Shown one piece after another: positions 342 through 11,304 of a stretch of 11,304 bases of DNA. The stretch's first letter is position 1, and each line of letters starts with the position of its first letter. Made by a program: the position numbers and the translations under genes. This DNA comes from a plasmid. The stretch lies in NCBI RefSeq assembly GCF_057098645.1, contig NZ_JBXSPU010000004.1. One strand, 5' to 3'. A model generated the notes under the pieces. The model was not told where the DNA came from. It saw nothing but the letters and a program-made list of their open reading frames with translations, and ran no database searches.

Positions 342-536
342 TTATGGTTCCGTGCCGTACTGCGCTTCAAAGTGTGTCTGTATGCTGTTACCGAGTTCTT
401 CCGCCAGTTCGTGCAGTCGTTCGCACATGGCGGCCTGTTCGTCTGCATCCAGTGCATCCAGTTTTTCGAGCAACGTCAGGCTCTGGCTTTTGATAAATCG
501 CGCCATGTTGAGCGCGGTCTGCTGCTGTTTGTTCAC
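342..536 (-). CDS. rop: Rop/Rom, RNA I-RNA II pairing modulator
   Basis: 64-aa ORF MNKQQQTALNMARFIKSQSLTLLEKLDALDADEQA... aligns along its length with the 63-aa ColE1/pMB1 Rop (MTKQEKTALNMARFIRSQTLTLLEKLNELDADEQA...); it sits at the expected place beside bom. Confidence 0.9.
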   Translation of the reverse strand: MNKQQQTALNMARFIKSQSLTLLEKLDALDADEQAAMCERLHELAEELGNSIQTHFEAQYGTEP

Positions 537-2483: not shown

Positions 2484-2571
2484 TAGAACATCAGGGCGCG
2501 TTTCCGGGTAAACGCATGTTAATGACCGGGAATTCATTGATCAGGGACCGGAGACGCGCTACAAAACTCCT

Positions 2572-2713
2572 GCGCGTTTCTGGCATCAACTGACCATGGG
2601 GATGGTTTGGCAGTAGCAGCAAGCGCCAGAAACGCGCTCAAAACGCCTCTGGCGGCAAAACCATTGCCCGATGCAAAAAAGTGCGTTACAAAGCCTCTGA
2701 GCGCGTTTCTGGC
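2572..2713. repeat. Nested inverted copies of GCGCGTTTCTGGC forming long-range hairpins, followed by a T-tract
   Basis: gcgcgtttctggc at 2572-2584 and 2701-2713; its reverse complement at 2624-2636. The pair 2624-2639 / 2698-2713 is a perfect 16-bp inverted repeat. T6 at 2716-2721. The 15-mer CTGAGCGCGTTTCTG recurs at 3466-3480 inside cer. Confidence 0.5.
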
Positions 2714-3097
2714 GTCTTTTTTGTTGCTGTGTCGCTATACTCGTTGTCAGATTCGCGCTCAATCATCACTGATTAATCTGCGCTTATCCTTCGACTGATC
2801 ACGCTGGTATTTTTTGACAACCGGTTCCCATGAAAACGCCAGACGGGAACCGTCATCCGCACCCTCTGACATGCTGGGGATTAAAAATCCCTGTGCCGCA
2901 CAGCCGGCGTTGCATAAAATTCCGCTCTGCGATGAGTATTGTTTAATCAAAAATCCCCTCGTTTTCTCCAGAAAAACGCGAGTCTGTTCTCATGCCCCGG
3001 ATGCCCACACCCCACGCAAAACCAACTTTTTTCTGATTTGCTTTTTAAATCATGTTGTTATGGTTTGAAAAATATATTTTCTTATTCAGATTTATAC

Positions 3098-3270
3098 AAA
3101 AGCGAGTCGTCGGCGACTACTGGATGATTCGGCAACGAGTCGTCGGTGATTTATCGATGACTCAACACACTGTCTCCCTGGTGTTCAGAAAAAGCGAGTC
3201 GCCAGAGAGTCGCGAGGAAAAATACTGGATGACTCGCTGATGGCTCCCGGGGTGAATCGCTCACGACTCG
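3098..3270. repeat. Cluster of GAGTCG / CGACTC-containing direct and inverted repeats
   Basis: (G/A)CGAGTCGTCGG at 3101-3113 and 3134-3146; ACTGGATGA(T/C)TCG at 3118-3130 and 3224-3236; GAGTCGCC and GAGTCGCG at 3196-3213; CGACTCG at 3264-3270. Confidence 0.5.
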
Positions 3271-3299
3271 TCTGTAACTACTGTCTGATTTCTTCTCAT

Positions 3300-3516
3300 C
3301 AGGGCTGAAAACGTCCGAAAATGCGCCTTATGGGAATCAGGCGCGCCCAAACCGATCGCCATTCAGTTTCATGCATAGTCATGCAGTGCCATGAAAACAA
3401 TCCTGACGTATTTTTCCGGTTTACCCGGGGGGAAAACATCTCTTTTTGCGGTTTTTGCGTCAGAATCGCGCTGAGCGCGTTTCTGCGGTGCGTACAATTA
3501 AGGGATTATGGTAAAT
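3300..3516 (+). other. cer-type multimer resolution site (accessory sequences plus XerC/XerD core)
   Basis: Core at 3487-3516 reads GGTGCGTACAA-TTAAGGGA-TTATGGTAAAT, which is the ColE1 cer XerC arm, 8-bp central region and XerD arm as I recall them. About 190 bp of upstream accessory sequence includes an ARG-box-like segment near 3360-3385. Left boundary approximate. Confidence 0.8.
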
Positions 3517-3524
3517 GTCTCCCT

Positions 3525-3947
3525 TTACTGCCTGCCCTCGTAGCCATCAAGATAAACCGCAGAAATCGTGTCAGCCAGCAGCTTCATTTTTTCCGGTGAT
3601 GGCATATCACCGTTCGTGTATTTTCTGCCAGCAAAGGTTGTTGTGCTCCGGAGTGAGTGAAAAAATTTTTCTGAGTGGAATTCTTTTACACGTTGCTGTG
3701 CCGTTTCTGCTGATACTCCGGCTGCTTTGTCTTTCATCCCCATATCCCGGAACTGCTGAAAGAACGGGTGCATCATACGTATGGTGTCTGCTTTCTGGGT
3801 GTGGAAGTTAGGATCAAATCCATCATCTGAAGCATAAACATAATGCCGGGTATGTCGTTCCAGGCTGGTCTTTGGTGTGCATCCTGTAAGAGCTATTGTT
3901 GCTGTTATCAGAGGTATCAGAAGCAGCCTGACAGCGGCAGATCTCAT
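3525..3947 (-). CDS. Putative lipoprotein (140 aa), function unknown
   Basis: N-terminus MRSAAVRLLLIPLITATIALTGC has a signal peptide and lipobox L-T-G-C; AGGAG Shine-Dalgarno 7 nt upstream on the minus strand. No family recognised. Confidence 0.6.
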   Translation of the reverse strand: MRSAAVRLLLIPLITATIALTGCTPKTSLERHTRHYVYASDDGFDPNFHTQKADTIRMMHPFFQQFRDMGMKDKAAGVSAETAQQRVKEFHSEKFFHSLRSTTTFAGRKYTNGDMPSPEKMKLLADTISAVYLDGYEGRQ

Positions 3948-4873: not shown

Positions 4874-6346
4874 ATGGATAAAGTCACTGATAATTCTCCA
4901 GATGTGGAGAGCACAGAATCTACTGAGGGGTCATTCCCAACCGTTGGGGTTGATACTGGCGATACGATTACAGCGACGCTTGCAACTGGAACTGAAAATG
5001 TTGGTGGAGGCGGTGGAGCATTTGGTGGGGCCAGTGAAAGTTCTGCTGCGATACATGCAACCGCTAAATGGTCTACCGCGCAGTTGAAAAAACATCAGGC
5101 TGAACAGGCTGCCCGTGCTGCTGCGGCTGAGGCAGCATTGGCAAAAGCGAAATCTCAGCGTGATGCCCTGACTCAACGTCTCAAAGATATTGTTAATGAC
5201 GCTTTACGTGCTAATGCCGCCCGTAGTCCATCAGTAACTGACCTTGCTCATGCCAATAATATGGCAATGCAGGCAGAGGCTGAGCGTTTGCGCCTTGCGA
5301 AGGCAGAGCAAAAAGCCCGTGAAGAAGCTGAAGCAGCAGAAAAAGCGCTCCGGGAAGCAGAACGCCAACGTGATGAGATTGCCCGCCAACAGGCTGAAAC
5401 CGAGCATTTGTTAGCTATGGCTGAGGCTGCTGAGGCTGAAAAAAATCGACAGGATTCTCTTGATGAAGAGCATCGGGCTGTGGAAGTGGCGGAGAAGAAT
5501 CTGGCTGAGGCTAAAGCTGAACTGGCGAAGGCTGAAAGCGATGTACAGAGTAAGCAAGCGATTGTTTCCAGAGTTGCAGGGGAGCTTGAAAACGCTCAAA
5601 AAAGTGTTGATGTGAAGGTTACCGGATTTCCTGGATGGCGTGATGTTCAGAAAAAACTAGAGAGACAATTGCAGGATAAGAAGAATGAATATTCGTCAGT
5701 GACAAATGCTCTTAATTCTGCTGTTAGCATTAGAGATGCTAAAAAAACAGAAGTTCAGAATGCTGAGACAAAATTAAAAGAAGCTCAGGATGCGCTTGAG
5801 AAGAGTCAGGTAAAAGATTCTGTTGATACTATGGTTGGGTTTTATCAATATATAACCGAACAATATGGAGAAAAATACGCAAGAATTGCTCAGGATTTAG
5901 CGGAAAAGTCTAAAGGAAAGAAAATTAAAGGTGTTGATGAAGCTTTAGCTGCATTTGAACAGTATAAAAATGTACTGGATAAGAAATTCAGTAAGGTTGA
6001 TAGGGATGCTATTTTTAATTCTTTAGAGTCTGTTAATTATGATGAGTTATCTAAGAATTTAACGAAGATATCAAAGTCGCTTAAAATCACTAGTCGAGTA
6101 TCTTTTCTATATGATGTTGGTTCTGATTTTAAAAATGCAATAGAAACTGGTAACTGGCGTCCTTTATTTGTCACGCTGGAGAAAAGTGCGGTAGATGTAG
6201 GTGTTGCAAAAATTGTGGCATTAATGTTTAGTTTTATTGTCGGCGTGCCTCTTGGTTTCTGGGGGATTGCTATTATCACAGGTATTGTTTCTTCTTACAT
6301 AGGGGATGATGAGTTGAACAAGCTTAATGAATTGCTAGGTATTTAA
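4874..6346 (+). CDS. cta: Pore-forming colicin of the E1 family, colicin 10-like (490 aa)
   Basis: Gly-rich N-terminal region, then [20 protein letters not shown]...[13 protein letters not shown]...LAHANN...ERLRLAKAE matching colicin E1 as I recall it. C-terminal channel domain ends [21 protein letters not shown]...LGI (E1: GIWGIAIVTGILCSYI...EVLGI). The length and the TonB-box-like DTITATL at residues 30-36 fit colicin 10; the symbol is tentative. Confidence 0.9.
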
Positions 6347-6633
6347 TTTCTCTTTAGAGAGTAATATATGAAACTTGGCAATCCTACTGGGATTGCCATT
6401 AATAAATAAAACAATGCAGATAACTTGCATAAATACCAGGGCTCTTTTTTAAATTTTGTATTTTCTTTGATATATCTAGATATGGTTAATTTAGAGTATG
6501 GATATAGCAATACATGTATTGACGATATAAAGACAAATAACAAAGGAGTGTTATCATGGTCGTTAAATATTAAAATAAGAATCCAGGGTATAAGTGATTC
6601 AGGTAAATTATGTAGGTAGTATTTTAAATGCAT
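6343..6633 (-). CDS. cti: Colicin immunity protein, E1-type integral membrane protein (96 aa)
   Basis: Convergent with the colicin gene and overlapping its stop. [10 protein letters not shown]...[22 protein letters not shown]...[14 protein letters not shown] parallels the colicin E1 Imm protein (MSLRYYIKNI...[22 protein letters not shown]...LVLAIPFGLLGLFI). Confidence 0.85.
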
Positions 6634-6662
6634 AAGTATTTTTACTTTTGTTGGAGAGGGAT

Positions 6663-6794
6663 ATGAAAATAATAATTTTTCTAATTACAATATTATTCTT
6701 GTCAGGATGTCAAGCAAACTATATTCGTGATGTACAAGGAGGAACCGTTGCGCCATCTTCGTCTTCTGAACTGACGGGGATCGCGGTTCAGTAG
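6663..6794 (+). CDS. ctl: Colicin lysis (bacteriocin release) lipoprotein, 43 aa
   Basis: Not in the ORF track. Translates to [43 protein letters not shown] with lipobox LSGC; the mature part is essentially identical to the ColE1 Kil mature sequence as I recall it. GGAGAGGG Shine-Dalgarno upstream. Confidence 0.85.
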
Positions 6795-6802
6795 AAAAGA
6801 TC

Positions 6803-6828
6803 AAAGGATCTCTTGAGATCCTTTTTTT
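6803..6828 (+). terminator. Intrinsic terminator after the lysis gene, overlapping the RNA II promoter -35
   Basis: aaaggatct-cttg-agatccttt: 9-bp perfect stem followed by TTTTTTT; same arrangement as in pMB1/ColE1. Confidence 0.7.
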
Positions 6829-6841
6829 CTGCGCGTAATCT
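6813..6841 (+). promoter_or_regulatory. RNA II (replication primer) promoter
   Basis: TTGAGA at 6813-6818 and TAATCT at 6836-6841 with 17-bp spacing, positionally equivalent to the pBR322 RNA II promoter. Confidence 0.55.
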
Positions 6842-6848
6842 GCTGCCT

Positions 6849-6957
6849 GTAAACGAAAAAACCGCCTGGGGAGGCGGTTTAGTCAAAGGTTAAGTCAGTT
6901 GGGGAACAGCTTAACCGGGTAACTGGCTTCAGCAGAGCGCAGATACCAAAAACTTGT
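6849..6957 (-). ncRNA. RNA I antisense copy-number regulator
   Basis: Antisense to the 5' ~110 nt of RNA II; its 5' end corresponds to the complement of cagataccaaaaacttgt (pBR322 RNA I begins ACAGTATTTGGTATCTG); three-stem-loop region. Ends approximate. Confidence 0.65.
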
Positions 6958-7478
6958 CCTTCTAGTGTAGTCAAAATCAGGCTGATACTTCAAGAACTCT
7001 GTTACTAACTTATAAATCTCGCTCTGCTAACCCGGTTACCAATGGCTGCTGCCAGTGGCGTTAAGTCGTGTCCTTTCCGGGTTGGACCCAAGAGAACAGT
7101 TACCGGAGAAGGCGCAGCAGTCGGGCTGAACGGGGGGTTCCTGCATACAGCCCGGCCCGGAGCGAACTGCCTAAGTCGCCCCGAGATACCAGAAGACGTG
7201 AGCTATGAGAAAGCGCCACGTGTCCCGCAAGGGAGAAAGGCGGAAAAGGTATCCGGCAATCGATATGGCGGGAACGTGGGGGCGCAGGAGGGAGCGATTC
7301 ACCGGAAACGGTGATGATCTTTAAGCCACGTCGGGTTTCGCCACCGCTGGCGGATTTCATGGTTGAGTCGGAAGACTCCCACAGATGCACCTAAAAAGTG
7401 TCTGTTTTGTGAAGTCCGTCAGGGGGGCGGAGCCTATGGAAAAAGCGCCTCCGGCGCGGCCTTTCGGGGTTTTCGTTT
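6849..7478 (+). ncRNA. RNA II primer precursor through the replication origin of a ColE1-type replicon
   Basis: Collinear with pBR322 RNA II/ori as recalled (ggtaactggcttcagcagagcgcagatacc..., gctatgagaaagcgccacg..., gtcaggggggcggagcctatggaaaaa..., ctcacatgttctttcc), but with many substitutions and an extra segment near 7330-7410. Ends approximate. Confidence 0.7.
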
Positions 7479-7515
7479 CTTGCTCACATGTTCTTTCCGG
7501 CGTTATCCCCTGATT

Positions 7516-7553
7516 GGGGTTCCGTGGGAATTTCTGCGATAACACCCGCTAAG
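7516..7553 (+). repeat. Left 38-bp terminal inverted repeat (IRL)
   Basis: GGGGTTCCGTGGGAATTTCTGCGATAACACCCGCTAAG. Confidence 0.85.
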
Positions 7554-7699
7554 CGATTCCTCCCTGACGGAAATCACTTGTTTTCCGTCAGGTCCTGCAG
7601 TTGAAGAAAATTGAATCCATAAATCTGTGATTTTTTGCGTGACAAACCCTGTCGGAATGAGAAACTGTACGGAAACTTCAATTTTAAGGTTTGTCGTAC
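7554..7699 (+). promoter_or_regulatory. res site (resolvase binding subsites) and tnpR promoter region
   Basis: 30-bp palindrome cctgacggaaa-tcacttgt-tttccgtcagg at 7563-7592, plus further TGTCGGAA / TGTACGGAA / TGTCGTACA half-sites at 7648-7700, between IRL and tnpR. Confidence 0.55.
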
Positions 7700-8323
7700 A
7701 TGTTGATTGGTTATATGCGGGTATCAAGCAATGATGAACGTCAGTCAGTTTCTTTGCAGCGTGATGCGTTGATTGCTGCTGGAGTGGATCCCCGGCATTT
7801 ACATCAGGATCATGCTTCAGGTGCTCGTGATAATCGCCCGGGACTTAAGTCCTGTCTCGCTGAACTTCGCGAAGGTGATGTACTGATAGTCTGGAAACTG
7901 GATCGACTTGGTCGTTCACTCTCACATTTGCTCCGAATTATTGAAGACCTGAAAATTCGTGGTATTGCTTTCCGATCATTGACTGAATCTATTGATACAA
8001 CAACGCCACACGGCTCGTTCCTCTTTAACCTTTTTGGCACGCTCGCGGAGTACGAAAGAACACTTATCACAGAACGCGTTAATGCTGGTCTGGCTGCTGC
8101 TCTCCGGCGGGGGAGAAAAGGCGGAAGGCCACCGGCGATAGATGCTGAAAAGGTTGATCAAATCCTCGCAGCTCTGGAAGGAGGTGCCAGTAAAGCGTCA
8201 GTATGTCGCGCATTCAGTGTGCCACGCTCAACGCTCACCGATACTCTACGACGAATTGGCTGGGCCGGACCTGGGGGGCGTAATCTGACAACGGATCAGA
8301 GCAATGTCATTTCTCGACTCTAA
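7700..8323 (+). CDS. tnpR: Serine recombinase (resolvase), Hin/Gin invertase-like
   Basis: MLIGYMRVSSNDERQ...RPGLK...GDVLIVWKLDRLGRS...GIAFRSLTESIDTTTP...GRKGGRPPA parallels Gin (MLIGYVRVSTNDQ...GDTLVVWKLDRLGRSM...GINFRSLTDSIDTSSP...GRIGGRPPK) as recalled. I place the start at ATG 7700 (AAGG about 10 nt upstream); the ORF track starts at an upstream TTG, 7691. Confidence 0.85.
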   Translation: MLIGYMRVSSNDERQSVSLQRDALIAAGVDPRHLHQDHASGARDNRPGLKSCLAELREGDVLIVWKLDRLGRSLSHLLRIIEDLKIRGIAFRSLTESIDTTTPHGSFLFNLFGTLAEYERTLITERVNAGLAAALRRGRKGGRPPAIDAEKVDQILAALEGGASKASVCRAFSVPRSTLTDTLRRIGWAGPGGRNLTTDQSNVISRL

Positions 8324-11270
8324 ATCGTACGATACGCTTTTTGGATTACCTGAACTTTATGAGGATGCACTTCCCCGGTTTTCGCTCTCCTGCGAGGATA
8401 TTGCATTCGCCAGAACTCATCGTCGATCTCATAACCGTCTGGGTTTTGCCATTCAGCTTGCACTTGTCCGTGATCTCGGTCGTACACTGCGTGCAGGAGA
8501 GATTCCCCCGGAGGCTGTTATCACCGTTGTTGCGGAACAACTGGATATTGACCCTGCTGTTTTTACACTTTACGCACAACGTGAGGAAACCCGCCGGGAA
8601 CATGCCCGCGAAATAGTTTCGGCTTTGGAGCTTCGTTCCGTCCGGAGTAGCGATTACAGAATGCTCATTATCGCGGCTACACGCGAAGCAGCAACCACCG
8701 AAAAAGGACTGCCGATCACCAGAGCAGTTATCAATAAGCTGAAGGACCAGAAGTTACTTGCCCCTGCTCCGGCACAACTCATCCGTCTGGCAATGGCGGG
8801 CCGGGCGGCTGCCCGTCGCCTTTCTTATCGGGAACTCATCAGGGATCTGAAACCTTCATCCATTAGCGCTCTCGAGCAGTTGCTTACCGAACGAGTCGGA
8901 GAAAAGAGCATTTTAGGCTGGATAGCTGAAGCGCCGGAAGGCGTGAAACTCAAGAATCTTAAGGGGTTAATTGCCAGGCTGGAGGTATTACGAACAGCGG
9001 CAATCTCCGATGAGCAACGTAAACGGATTCATGTAAACCGTTACGGTATTATTGCCCGGGATTCTCGCGTTTTACATGCGCGTGAAATACAACGAATGGC
9101 ATCCGAACGCTGTCATGCCACGCTGGTAGCCTTTGTTATTGAAAAGCAGGCAGCAATTACAGATCTGGCAATTGATATGTTCTGCAAATTGATTGGCAGC
9201 ACGAGGCGCAGAGCAGAGATAAGCCAGAAAGAGCGTCGTCTGAAAGCCGCTGAAGTACTTGAAGTCGTAGCTCAGGATCATATTAAGTTGGGACGGGCTC
9301 TCCTGGCAGCACGTGACGGTAATACTGATATTGAATCTGTAATAACAGCATCACTCGGCTGGGAAGGTTTGATTGCCAGTATGGAGGCTGCAGCTTCGGT
9401 GGCATCTTCCCATCACTGTTCTGAACTGGATGAACTTATCGGACGACAAAAATCATTACGTAAGCTTGGACGACTCATTTTCAGCGCTTTTTCTTTCAGA
9501 GCTTTTCGCCCGGATGATAGCGTTTTGTTGGCGATTGGGTATTTGCAGGCGTTCTATCATGGCCGAAAATTACCCAAACAAATTCCGCTCGATTTTATGT
9601 CCCATAAATGGCGACGTCGTGTCATCCATGGAGAAAATACCGATCTGCAGGCGTGGGAAGTCGCCGTATTCGTTCATTTGCGGGAACGCCTGAAAACAGG
9701 TGACATATGGGTTGATGGTAGTCGGGCCTGGCGTAGTTTTGAGGACTACCTTCTTCCTCACCATGTTTTCGGGCAGATGCGGGCAGAATCCCGGCTGGGA
9801 CTTGCCATTCCGGACAACTTTGCTGAATGGCGGGCTGAGCGAACCACCACACTCAACGCAAAACTGAAAGCGCTGGCAAAAGCTGCTTCGGAGAATGCCA
9901 TACCCGATGCAGAACTTTCCAGCAGAGGGTTGTCTGTGTCTCCGATTCGCGAAGAAGAGAGCGACAAAATTAAGGCTCTCAGCCGTAAACTCTACATGCT
10001 GGTACCACGCATCAGAATTACCAGTTTGCTGGCAGAAGTTCATAGCTGGACCAGTTTTCTTGATTGTTTCACCCATTATCGCACCGGGGAACAGGCGGAA
10101 GATGAAGCTGCACTTATGGCTGCGATCCTTGCCGATGCGACGAATGCGGGAGCAGAACGGATGGCGCAGAGTTCCCGGGGTGTCACCATTCACCAGATGA
10201 TGGTAATGATGGATCGTCATTTACGCACTGAAACCTATGCGTCTGCCACATCAGTTCTGGTCGATGCGCAACAGGAACATCCTTTTGCTGCTATATGGGG
10301 GGATGGGCATGTGTCATCCTCGGACGGGCAGTTTTTTCCTGCGGGTGGACGAGGAGAAGCCAGCCTCGAATATAACGCCAAATACGGCAAACGACCTGGC
10401 GCGTCGATTTATGGTTTTTTATCGAACCGTTTTGCATCCTTTTTTTCCAGAATGATTCAGGCCTCTGAAAGCGAGGCTCCCTACGTACTTGACGGCTTAC
10501 TTCATAACGAAAGTTCTGTGGTAATTCATGAGCATGCCACCGATACAGCCGGTGCGACTGAAACAACATTTTCAATGTTTCACTCTTTTGGTTACAGACT
10601 CATACCCCGTATTCGCAACCTCGGCAGTCGCAGGTTGTACGTTATTTCCCCCTCAGAGGAATATAAACCACTTGATGCCCTGATCGCCGGAAAGGCCAAA
10701 ATGGAAGTAATAGAACAGCACTGGGATGAAGTTCTGCGGCTTAAGGCCTCGATCGGCGCTGGTCTGGTACCACCATCGGTAATACTGAAAAAGCTGGCAG
10801 CATCTCCGAGACAAAACAGGCTCAATCTGGCCCTGCGTGAAATGGGACGTATTGAACGCTCAATTTTTATCTGTGACTGGTTGCTTGACACTCGGTTACG
10901 TCGCAGATCACACGCAATCCTCAACAAAGGCGAAAGCCGCCATGCACTTGCCCGCGCTATTTTTCTTCACCAACTGGGCGAATTCCGGAACAGGGCTGCC
11001 GAGACAATGGCTCACAGGGCATCGGGCCTCAACCTTGTTGTTAATGCAATAATTCTGTGGAACACGGTCTATCTCAGTCGGGCTGTTGATTACATTCGCA
11101 GCCAGGGGATCATTATACCGGAAGAGCTCTTGTCCAGTGTATCACCACTACCATGGGGTCATATCTCGCTCACTGGAGATTACCTGTGGAACGAAATTGA
11201 CCATCCCCTTGAACGATACAGGCCACTTCGTACTAATCGCTTCAATCCAAAGAACTTCACTTTTCCTTAG
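8304..11270 (+). CDS. tnpA: Tn3-family DDE transposase (988 aa)
   Basis: HNRLGFAIQLALVRDLG, NKGESRHALARAIFLHQLGEFRNR and NAIILWNTVYLSRAVDYIRSQG mirror Tn3 TnpA motifs (HNRLGIALQIGCVRFLG, NRGESRHAVARAICHGQKGEIRKR, NAVVLWNTIYMQAALDHLRAQG). Overlaps the tnpR 3' end by 20 nt. Confidence 0.93.
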   Translation: MSFLDSKSYDTLFGLPELYEDALPRFSLSCEDIAFARTHRRSHNRLGFAIQLALVRDLGRTLRAGEIPPEAVITVVAEQLDIDPAVFTLYAQREETRREHAREIVSALELRSVRSSDYRMLIIAATREAATTEKGLPITRAVINKLKDQKLLAPAPAQLIRLAMAGRAAARRLSYRELIRDLKPSSISALEQLLTERVGEKSILGWIAEAPEGVKLKNLKGLIARLEVLRTAAISDEQRKRIHVNRYGIIARDSRVLHAREIQRMASERCHATLVAFVIEKQAAITDLAIDMFCKLIGSTRRRAEISQKERRLKAAEVLEVVAQDHIKLGRALLAARDGNTDIESVITASLGWEGLIASMEAAASVASSHHCSELDELIGRQKSLRKLGRLIFSAFSFRAFRPDDSVLLAIGYLQAFYHGRKLPKQIPLDFMSHKWRRRVIHGENTDLQAWEVAVFVHLRERLKTGDIWVDGSRAWRSFEDYLLPHHVFGQMRAESRLGLAIPDNFAEWRAERTTTLNAKLKALAKAASENAIPDAELSSRGLSVSPIREEESDKIKALSRKLYMLVPRIRITSLLAEVHSWTSFLDCFTHYRTGEQAEDEAALMAAILADATNAGAERMAQSSRGVTIHQMMVMMDRHLRTETYASATSVLVDAQQEHPFAAIWGDGHVSSSDGQFFPAGGRGEASLEYNAKYGKRPGASIYGFLSNRFASFFSRMIQASESEAPYVLDGLLHNESSVVIHEHATDTAGATETTFSMFHSFGYRLIPRIRNLGSRRLYVISPSEEYKPLDALIAGKAKMEVIEQHWDEVLRLKASIGAGLVPPSVILKKLAASPRQNRLNLALREMGRIERSIFICDWLLDTRLRRRSHAILNKGESRHALARAIFLHQLGEFRNRAAETMAHRASGLNLVVNAIILWNTVYLSRAVDYIRSQGIIIPEELLSSVSPLPWGHISLTGDYLWNEIDHPLERYRPLRTNRFNPKNFTFP

Positions 11271-11303
11271 CGTGTGTTATCGCAGAAATGCCCACGGAAC
11301 CCC
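11266..11303 (-). repeat. Right 38-bp terminal inverted repeat (IRR)
   Basis: Reverse complement reads GGGGTTCCGTGGGCATTTCTGCGATAACACACGCTAAG; differs from IRL at positions 14 and 31. Confidence 0.85.
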
Positions 11304-11304
11304 T

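Follow-up and report, generated by a model that had tools for sequence, protein, structure and literature searches.

What is the function of a dense cluster of short repeats directly upstream of the cer site of a small colicin plasmid, and does the cluster belong to cer at all? The stretch of DNA analysed here, referred to as the window, is a complete ColE1-type colicin plasmid of 11,304 bp, to which the record NZ_CP062882.1 (L001) from a pig E. coli O157:H16 is near-identical, with the same length and ~99.95% identity. The window carries rop (342-536, minus strand), a gene for an ANR-family regulator (1159-1353), exc2 (3525-3947, minus strand), the colicin 10 gene with its immunity and lysis genes (4874-6794) and a Tn3-family transposon (~7515-11304). 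The replicon is of the RNAI/RNAII type without an intact rep gene, and an Rfam scan of the window returned RNAI (6853-6954) as the sole match. Neither mob genes nor a relaxase are found among the annotations of the near-identical record NZ_CP062882.1. The cer site is located on the plus strand at 3297-3517 and is composed of an accessory region (~3297-3487) and the XerC/XerD core (3488-3517), which reads GGTGCGTACAA-TTAAGGGA-TTATGGTAAAT. The original prediction placed the repeat cluster at 3098-3270, and these coordinates are correct, as are the longer repeated words described within it, namely CGAGTCGTCGG at 3103-3113 and 3136-3146 and ACTGGATGA(T/C)TCG at 3119-3131 and 3224-3236. Its position just upstream of cer is likewise confirmed, the last repeat ending 219 bp before the XerC/XerD core.

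The cluster had been described as containing about eight copies of GAGTCG. The repetition itself is borne out, but the number is too high, as 3098-3270 holds five exact GAGTCG/CGACTC hexamers, four on the plus strand (3104, 3137, 3196 and 3207) and one on the minus strand (3264-3269). The remaining GAGTCG-like copies vary at the central base, and the shared core is therefore the pseudo-palindrome GANTC and not GAGTCG, as had been assumed. GANTC is present nine times in the cluster, with starts at 3104, 3126, 3137, 3159, 3196, 3207, 3231, 3254 and 3265, and eight of the nine copies read GANTCG. The start-to-start spacings are 22, 11, 22, 37, 11, 24, 23 and 11 bp, and the sites form two phased groups, the first of which consists of two tandem 33-bp units. 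From the window-wide density only 0.77 GANTC would be expected in a stretch of this length (173 bp), and the count of the cluster is not surpassed by any other such stretch in the window. When the cluster's own 173 bp were shuffled 5000 times with the dinucleotide composition preserved, GANTC occurred 1.90 times on average (sd 1.25, maximum 7) and the hexamer 0.41 times; nine GANTC were reached in 0/5000 shuffles and five hexamers likewise in 0/5000, which upholds the earlier claim that such a density is improbable by chance.

A nic site that was overlooked in the original prediction is located ~95 bp upstream of the cluster. The minus strand, predicted to be the transferred strand, reads 5'-TTTGCGTGGGGTGT|GGGCAT-3' at 3001-3020, with cleavage predicted between 3007 and 3006. 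The 16 bases CCACACCCCACGCAAA (window 3005-3020) are shared at 16/16 positions by F (NC_002483) and four other native F-like plasmids, in which they adjoin the SLT transglycosylase gene (gene X), and with this core identity the nic sequence recognised by TraI is present in the window. A query consisting of 2960-3100 matches at least 4901 plasmids, with 3982 conjugative plasmids among the matches listed, again adjoining the SLT/gene X end. The substrate of F TraI has been reported as TTTGCGTGGGGTGT|GGTGCTTT (PMC2504302), and beyond the nick the window agrees with it for two bases only, with G for T at the third base and further differences after that. Immediately 5' of nic, the transferred strand of F can form a hairpin (GCAAAAAC-TT-GTTTTTGC), where the window has CAGAAAAAAGTTGGTTTTGC, with weak A/T pairing. 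Between nic and the first repeat lies an AT-rich segment (3021-3097, boundaries approximate and putative) that aligns with F and other F-like oriTs (CTGATTTGCTTTTTAAATCATG...) up to the cluster and is the equivalent of the IHF-A and TraY (sbyA) region of F, these names following the published accounts of the oriTs of pEC156 and F (PMC4743918). The IHF and TraY sites in this segment are thus predicted by alignment. On the leading-strand side of nic, the left arm of the conserved module (2876-3000) shows patchy similarity to F. The left edge of the module at 2876/2879 is sharp and coincides to the base in many plasmids that are otherwise unlike each other; no recombination site could be recognised at this edge.

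The bases of nic that separate F-type from R100-type TraI recognition read GGGG in the window, and the F-type nic is found in most other members of the GANTC lineage as well. Three members (L006, L008 and L011) have the R100-type two-base version (TTTGCGTAGTGTGT, AGTG) at window positions 3011 and 3013 and have kept the GANTC array; the R100 nic sequence is that given in PMC3074121. L002 has a point change at window position 3009 (GGGGGGT), which may inactivate its nic.

In F-like oriTs, the IHF/TraY segment is followed by sbmC, sbmB and sbmA and then by traM (PMC3159463; PMC4743918). The TraM proteins of R1 and pED208 are ribbon-helix-helix tetramers that read GANTC via Lys3, Gln5 and Tyr7, whereas the TraM motif of F is A(G/C)CG(G/C)T, and the plasmid specificity is set by the TraM-DNA interaction (Wong et al. 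2011, PMC3159463). For pED208 TraM, two GANTC motifs 11 bp apart are markedly better than two motifs 12 bp apart, and a spacing of 10 bp abolishes binding (PMC3159463).

Equivalents of all three sbm regions can be recognised in the window. The sbmC-equivalent (3098-3165) contains the four GANTC sites at 3104, 3126, 3137 and 3159, and each of its two tandem 33-bp units is an imperfect inverted repeat. It is followed by a spacer (3166-3189) at the position of IHF-B in F; according to the alignment, the AT-rich stretch found there in native oriTs is absent in the window. The sbmB-equivalent (3190-3215) has two GANTC sites 11 bp apart (3196 and 3207). The sbmA-equivalent (3224-3272) has sites at 3231, 3254 and 3265 and a degenerate site at 3242, which reads GGCTC in the window and GACTC in most sister plasmids; the family consensus of this part is four sites with spacings of 11, 12 and 11 bp. 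Next comes the junction between oriT and cer (3273-3296), the point at which the traM promoter and gene would be expected in native plasmids.

The positions of these sites were compared with those in two native plasmids by counting GANTC offsets from the nic motif. L024 encodes an R1-type TraM, with an N-domain 100% identical to that of R1 TraM (PDB 1DP3), and the TraM of L022 has the N-terminus MAKIQVY. Given in the order sbmC-, sbmB- and sbmA-equivalent, the offsets are +100, 122, 133, 155; +192, 203; and +227, 250, 261 in the window, where cer follows at ~+293. They are +100, 111, 122, 155; +192, 199; and +228, 256, 261 in L024, with traM at +335, and +100, 111, 122, 144; +193, 205; and +227, 239, 260, 272 in L022, with traM at +344. 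The window and the native plasmids nearly coincide at +100, 122, 155, 192/193, 227/228 and 260/261, so that the cluster presents the motif of a Lys3/Gln5/Tyr7-type TraM (nine GANTC in 173 bp) at the sbmC, sbmB and sbmA offsets from nic. F has no GANTC between nic and traM and carries its own motif at +99, +227 and +245; the F-type motif is absent from the nic-to-cer interval of the window.

The array thus resembles the sbmA/sbmB/sbmC regions of R1 and pED208 (PMC3159463) in its motif, in its place between nic and the traM side and in having one group of sites close to nic (+100 to +155) and a second farther away (+192 to +265). The pair spacings of 11-12 bp match as well, with GANTC pairs exactly 11 bp apart at 3126/3137, 3196/3207 and 3254/3265. 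The crystallised sbmA of pED208 has four adjacent motifs, alternate ones 12 bp apart, whereas the sites of the window are 11 or 22-24 bp apart, and no run of four contiguous GANTC in 6-bp phase occurs in the cluster; native R1-type and L022 arrays are likewise mostly without such a run. The flanking bases in the window favour the words CGAGTCG and GATGAYTCG, which are not seen in the two native oriTs examined. Where the array of a native plasmid would overlap the traM promoter and lead into traM, cer begins instead (~3297). No promoter-like site is found in 2500-3700, the annotation of the near-identical RefSeq record contains no traM and nothing TraM-like is present among the ORFs near the cluster. 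With neither the gene nor its promoter downstream, the autoregulatory role of sbmA and sbmB is therefore gone. Compared with the F oriT as a whole (nic, IHF-A, sbyA, sbmC, IHF-B, sbmB, sbmA), the window has an identical nic core (TTTGCGTGGGGTGT|GG), the same order of parts and a homologous AT-rich IHF/TraY segment, but it has diverged on the leading side of nic, carries GANTC in place of A(G/C)CG(G/C)T and is not AT-rich at the IHF-B position.

Based on these comparisons, the region ~2990-3295, which can be aligned with F-like plasmids from nic to traM, appears to be an F-like oriT, the cognate traM, traY and traI genes of which are absent from the plasmid, and the cluster at 3098-3270 is very probably the TraM-binding array of this orphan oriT, in a GANTC allele with equivalents of sbmC, sbmB and sbmA. 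Homology, motif, positional match and an allelic series among relatives are the observations behind this assignment, and from them we infer TraM binding and mobilisation. The full explanation, in which TraM is predicted to bind and an F-like helper to mobilise the plasmid, is considered likely, though it is held a little less firmly than the identity of the array because current functionality is rated below identity. The original proposal, a region with several protein-binding sites that acts in its own right, is thus supported by the homology to the TraM sites of F-like oriTs. The segment is also a known conserved part of another described element, an outcome that the proposal had itself named as speaking against it.

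Thanks to the cluster, the small plasmid can probably be mobilised by a large conjugative one. TraI would be supplied by an F-like conjugative plasmid in the same cell and would nick the minus strand at TTTGCGTGGGGTGT|GG (3007/3006), aided by IHF and TraY on the AT-rich segment. The helper would need a TraM of the Lys3/Gln5/Tyr7 type, as in R1 and pED208, the ribbon-helix-helix tetramers of which would occupy the GANTC sites at their intervals of 11 bp or roughly two helical turns. Docking of the TraM C-terminal domains on the coupling protein TraD would then deliver the small plasmid to the secretion channel of the helper. The array would therefore decide which helpers move the plasmid.

A closely related arrangement has been described for pEC156, a ColE1-type plasmid without mob genes, which carries a 93-bp R64-type oriT, ~138 bp of intervening sequence and a 274-bp F-type oriT with annotated sbmA, sbmB and sbmC, as well as cer (PMC4743918). 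Both F (0.55) and R64 (0.24) mobilise this plasmid, and no mobilisation is seen when both oriTs are deleted (PMC4743918). The plasmids pSe-Kan and pKPN2 behave like pEC156 (PMC9282650), an orphan F-type oriT is also present in pColG (PMC4743918, PMC9282650), and 'pOriT' plasmids have been described at scale by Ares-Arroyo et al. (PMC10123127). In the window, as in pEC156, pKPN2, pSe-Kan and pColG, a ColE1 replicon without mob genes bears an R64-type oriT, an F-like oriT and cer and follows the logic of a relaxase acting in trans, and the flanks are homologous, as L026 and L017 show. The TraM sites of the pEC156 group, however, are of the F type (86-90% identity with the F oriT), and F served as the helper in their tests, whereas the window combines GANTC-type sites with an F-type nic and should therefore need a different helper. 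The array lies next to cer because, in this plasmid lineage, the R64-type oriT, the F-like oriT and cer together form a conserved block that stands in the place of the ColE1 mob genes, and not through a role in Xer recombination. ColE1 itself aligns only over the last ~50 bp of cer and exc2, and the cluster is absent from it.

The window has two copies of the IncI1/R64-type oriT (899-984 and 2172-2257) in inverse orientation and 75% identical over 80 bp, which contain GGGTGTCGGGGC...CACATCCTGTCCCG and flank a segment of ~1.2 kb with the gene for the ANR-family regulator (1159-1353). Their identity was assigned through a homologue directly upstream of nikA/nikB in the IncI1-type plasmid NZ_CP062887.1; the R64 oriT coordinates published with pEC156 could not be placed on NC_005014.1 53000-55000. 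In small relatives, only one R64-type oriT is found, ~145 bp from the F-like oriT, as in pEC156. With two R64-type oriTs, one F-like oriT and no relaxase, the plasmid therefore has three relaxase-less oriTs.

The cluster was found in 42 PLSDB plasmids, all of them ColE1-type plasmids or cointegrates, and in 32/5426 complete E. coli genomes, where it is always plasmid-borne; the region is unannotated in 34/34 RefSeq E. coli records that contain it. MOB-suite types 25 of the 42 carriers as 'mobilizable', several of those inspected being without an annotated relaxase, and 10 of the 42 are typed as non-mobilizable. The block conserved across carriers extends from 2876/2879 to the cer core at 3516/3517, the latter being the right edge of the module. 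Sister plasmids have other arrays in the same frame. The 2.7-kb plasmid L026 (CP098982.1) has 2879-3050 and 3305-3492 of the window in common and an F-type array between them, while L017, the ColE1 segment of pUTAK-3, shares 2900-3117 and 3305-3500 and has R100-like GACCC/GGGTC sites between them. Homology to these plasmids with other sbm alleles resumes at ~3297-3305. What varies within the conserved oriT-cer block is therefore the cluster, the part that determines specificity. With F-type, R100-like and R1/GANTC-type versions seen, we tentatively suggest that mob-less ColE1-type plasmids retain a fixed scaffold of nic-proximal segment and cer, exchange the TraM region as a cassette and, in the GANTC lineage, also switch the two nic bases that distinguish F-type from R100-type recognition, an idea that we regard as possible but rather doubtful. 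If such swapping is adaptive, recombination would re-tune which conjugative helpers move these plasmids, and an F-type nic combined with R1-type TraM sites would mark out one specific class of helpers.

The whole oriT-cer module is also present at 98.5% identity in seven large conjugative IncF plasmids of 108-133 kb, including CP027674.1 (L018) and NZ_CP075653.1. Typing of CP027674.1 finds a ColRNAI replicon too, suggesting that in the seven plasmids the small plasmid is joined with an F-like one as a cointegrate.

The array could be a decaying, non-functional relic of the TraM region of an F-like oriT that is kept through its linkage to cer and a high copy number, which we consider improbable but clearly ahead of the other alternatives. 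Across 15 family members, 6/36 columns of the GANTC core and 18/128 columns of the spacers are variable, so that the core is no better conserved than the spacers, a comparison that is not decisive among 15 close relatives. Sites have been lost in L007 (seven GANTC), in L015 (eight) and in the window (3242), the nic is mutated in L002 and its core damaged in L017, the IHF-B position is not AT-rich, and no closely similar array is found in native plasmids, nor is a helper found in the inspected parts of the plasmids of the host strain. However, 12/15 members keep 9-10 GANTC with spacings of 11 bp and about two helical turns even though the module differs by up to 13% elsewhere, and four of the nine sites are substituted at the N position (3106, 3128, 3161 and 3198) with the motif left intact. 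The nic core is also intact in the window and most members, the R100-type base pair in three members is an alternative recognised sequence and not random damage, and the close analogue pEC156 works.

That the cluster might influence the recombination synapse of cer had been raised in the original prediction. An extension of the accessory region, or a separate array for a host protein that shapes the Xer synapse, would be in keeping with the helical phasing of the sites and with the adjacency of cluster and cer in all 42 carriers. Yet a cer-containing query (3000-3520) matches 737 PLSDB plasmids, only 42 of which have the cluster and 695 of which do not, and sister plasmids have unrelated F-type or R100-type arrays at the same spot. 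The 219 bp between the end of the cluster and the core extend beyond the accessory region of ~180-190 bp, and the same motif array is found in native oriTs without an adjacent cer. To our knowledge, no ArgR, PepA or Fis motif resembles GANTC, which also counts against such a role. The suggestion is thus left without support and is very unlikely to be correct; the cluster is independent of cer, a neighbour and no part of it.

Equally slight is the chance that the cluster encodes a structured RNA or a structured single-stranded DNA element. The plus strand does fold better than its shuffles (z = -4.63, compared with z = -2.08 for the minus strand), but the unusually good folding arises because the palindromic motif occurs in both orientations. 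Among 12 distinct homologues the covariation term is unfavourable (+0.64), with a compensatory change in 1/54 pairs, and the lack of an Rfam match at the cluster and of a promoter-like site around it also argues against a structured element. A small protein gene or a set of iterons for a plasmid replication protein can practically be dismissed: an ATG-initiated ORF (3052-3240, 62 aa) covers most of the cluster, one record annotates a 42-aa hypothetical protein in the region and the tandem 33-bp units are iteron-like, but the frame is broken by 1-bp indels at 3202 (L004) and 3218 (L006 and L011) and by an 11-bp deletion (L006), RefSeq E. coli records leave the region unannotated and the RNAI/RNAII-type replicon has no intact rep gene.

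Several other candidates were rejected. ORFs in 2876-3300 are at most 84 aa long, and the one in the cluster is disrupted by indels in homologues. Terminator-like hairpins are the repeats themselves, and the one on the minus strand at 2903-2891 is not conserved; a phage origin or pac site was discarded for want of a meaningful phage match. None of the host transcription-factor motifs considered fitted (PaaX TGATTC, SlmA, LexA, DnaA, C-protein boxes and ParG ACTC boxes).

For the TraM-binding array of an F-like oriT, candidate helpers are common. PLSDB contains 671 records with a TraM N-domain at least 95% identical to that of R1 and 634 records with one at least 90% identical to that of L022. 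At the level of blastn, no match of the cluster to a native F-like plasmid is found in PLSDB, and no exact cognate helper is therefore identified. Besides plasmids of 46, 77 and 110 kb, the host strain of NZ_CP062882.1 has NZ_CP062881.1, which the search covered in full, and NZ_CP062879.1, of which it covered positions 1-50000 and 82000-131388; no helper TraM was present in the inspected sequence of these two co-resident plasmids. NZ_CP062881.1 (44.7 kb), which we take to be IncX-like, has a VirB-type T4SS. The 99 kb covered of the 131-kb IncFII plasmid NZ_CP062879.1 contain traD, traI and traX but neither traM, traY, pilus genes nor a nic. In the part 82000-131388 (L030), its transfer region is seen to be truncated, with a leading region (ssb, psiB, hok) and IS1 followed only by traD, traI, traX and finO, and the plasmid also bears colicin V genes and a gene cluster for type VI secretion.

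If the region is an F-like oriT with R1-type TraM sites, the colicin plasmid should be transferable with the help of a defined subset of IncF plasmids, and the same prediction extends to small relatives with restriction-modification systems, pesticin or TEM-1. The plasmid would also illustrate, in a natural setting, how TraM sites and nic bases together encode helper specificity in cis. Reports of orphan oriTs on ColE1-type plasmids already exist, so the value of the assignment lies mainly in better annotation and better prediction of mobility.

Outside the oriT-cer block, the window and NZ_CP062882.1 differ in the placement of the Tn3-family transposon, the segments concerned being 5309-7515 and 7514-11304 of the window. 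The colicin 10 gene is split by the transposon in NZ_CP062882.1. In the window this gene (4874-6346) is uninterrupted, and the transposon is found in inverted orientation between the replication origin and rop, which may reflect either a genuine rearrangement or a difference in assembly. The same transposase and resolvase proteins (WP_000008826.1 and WP_000904945.1) are encoded on the co-resident 44.7-kb plasmid NZ_CP062881.1.
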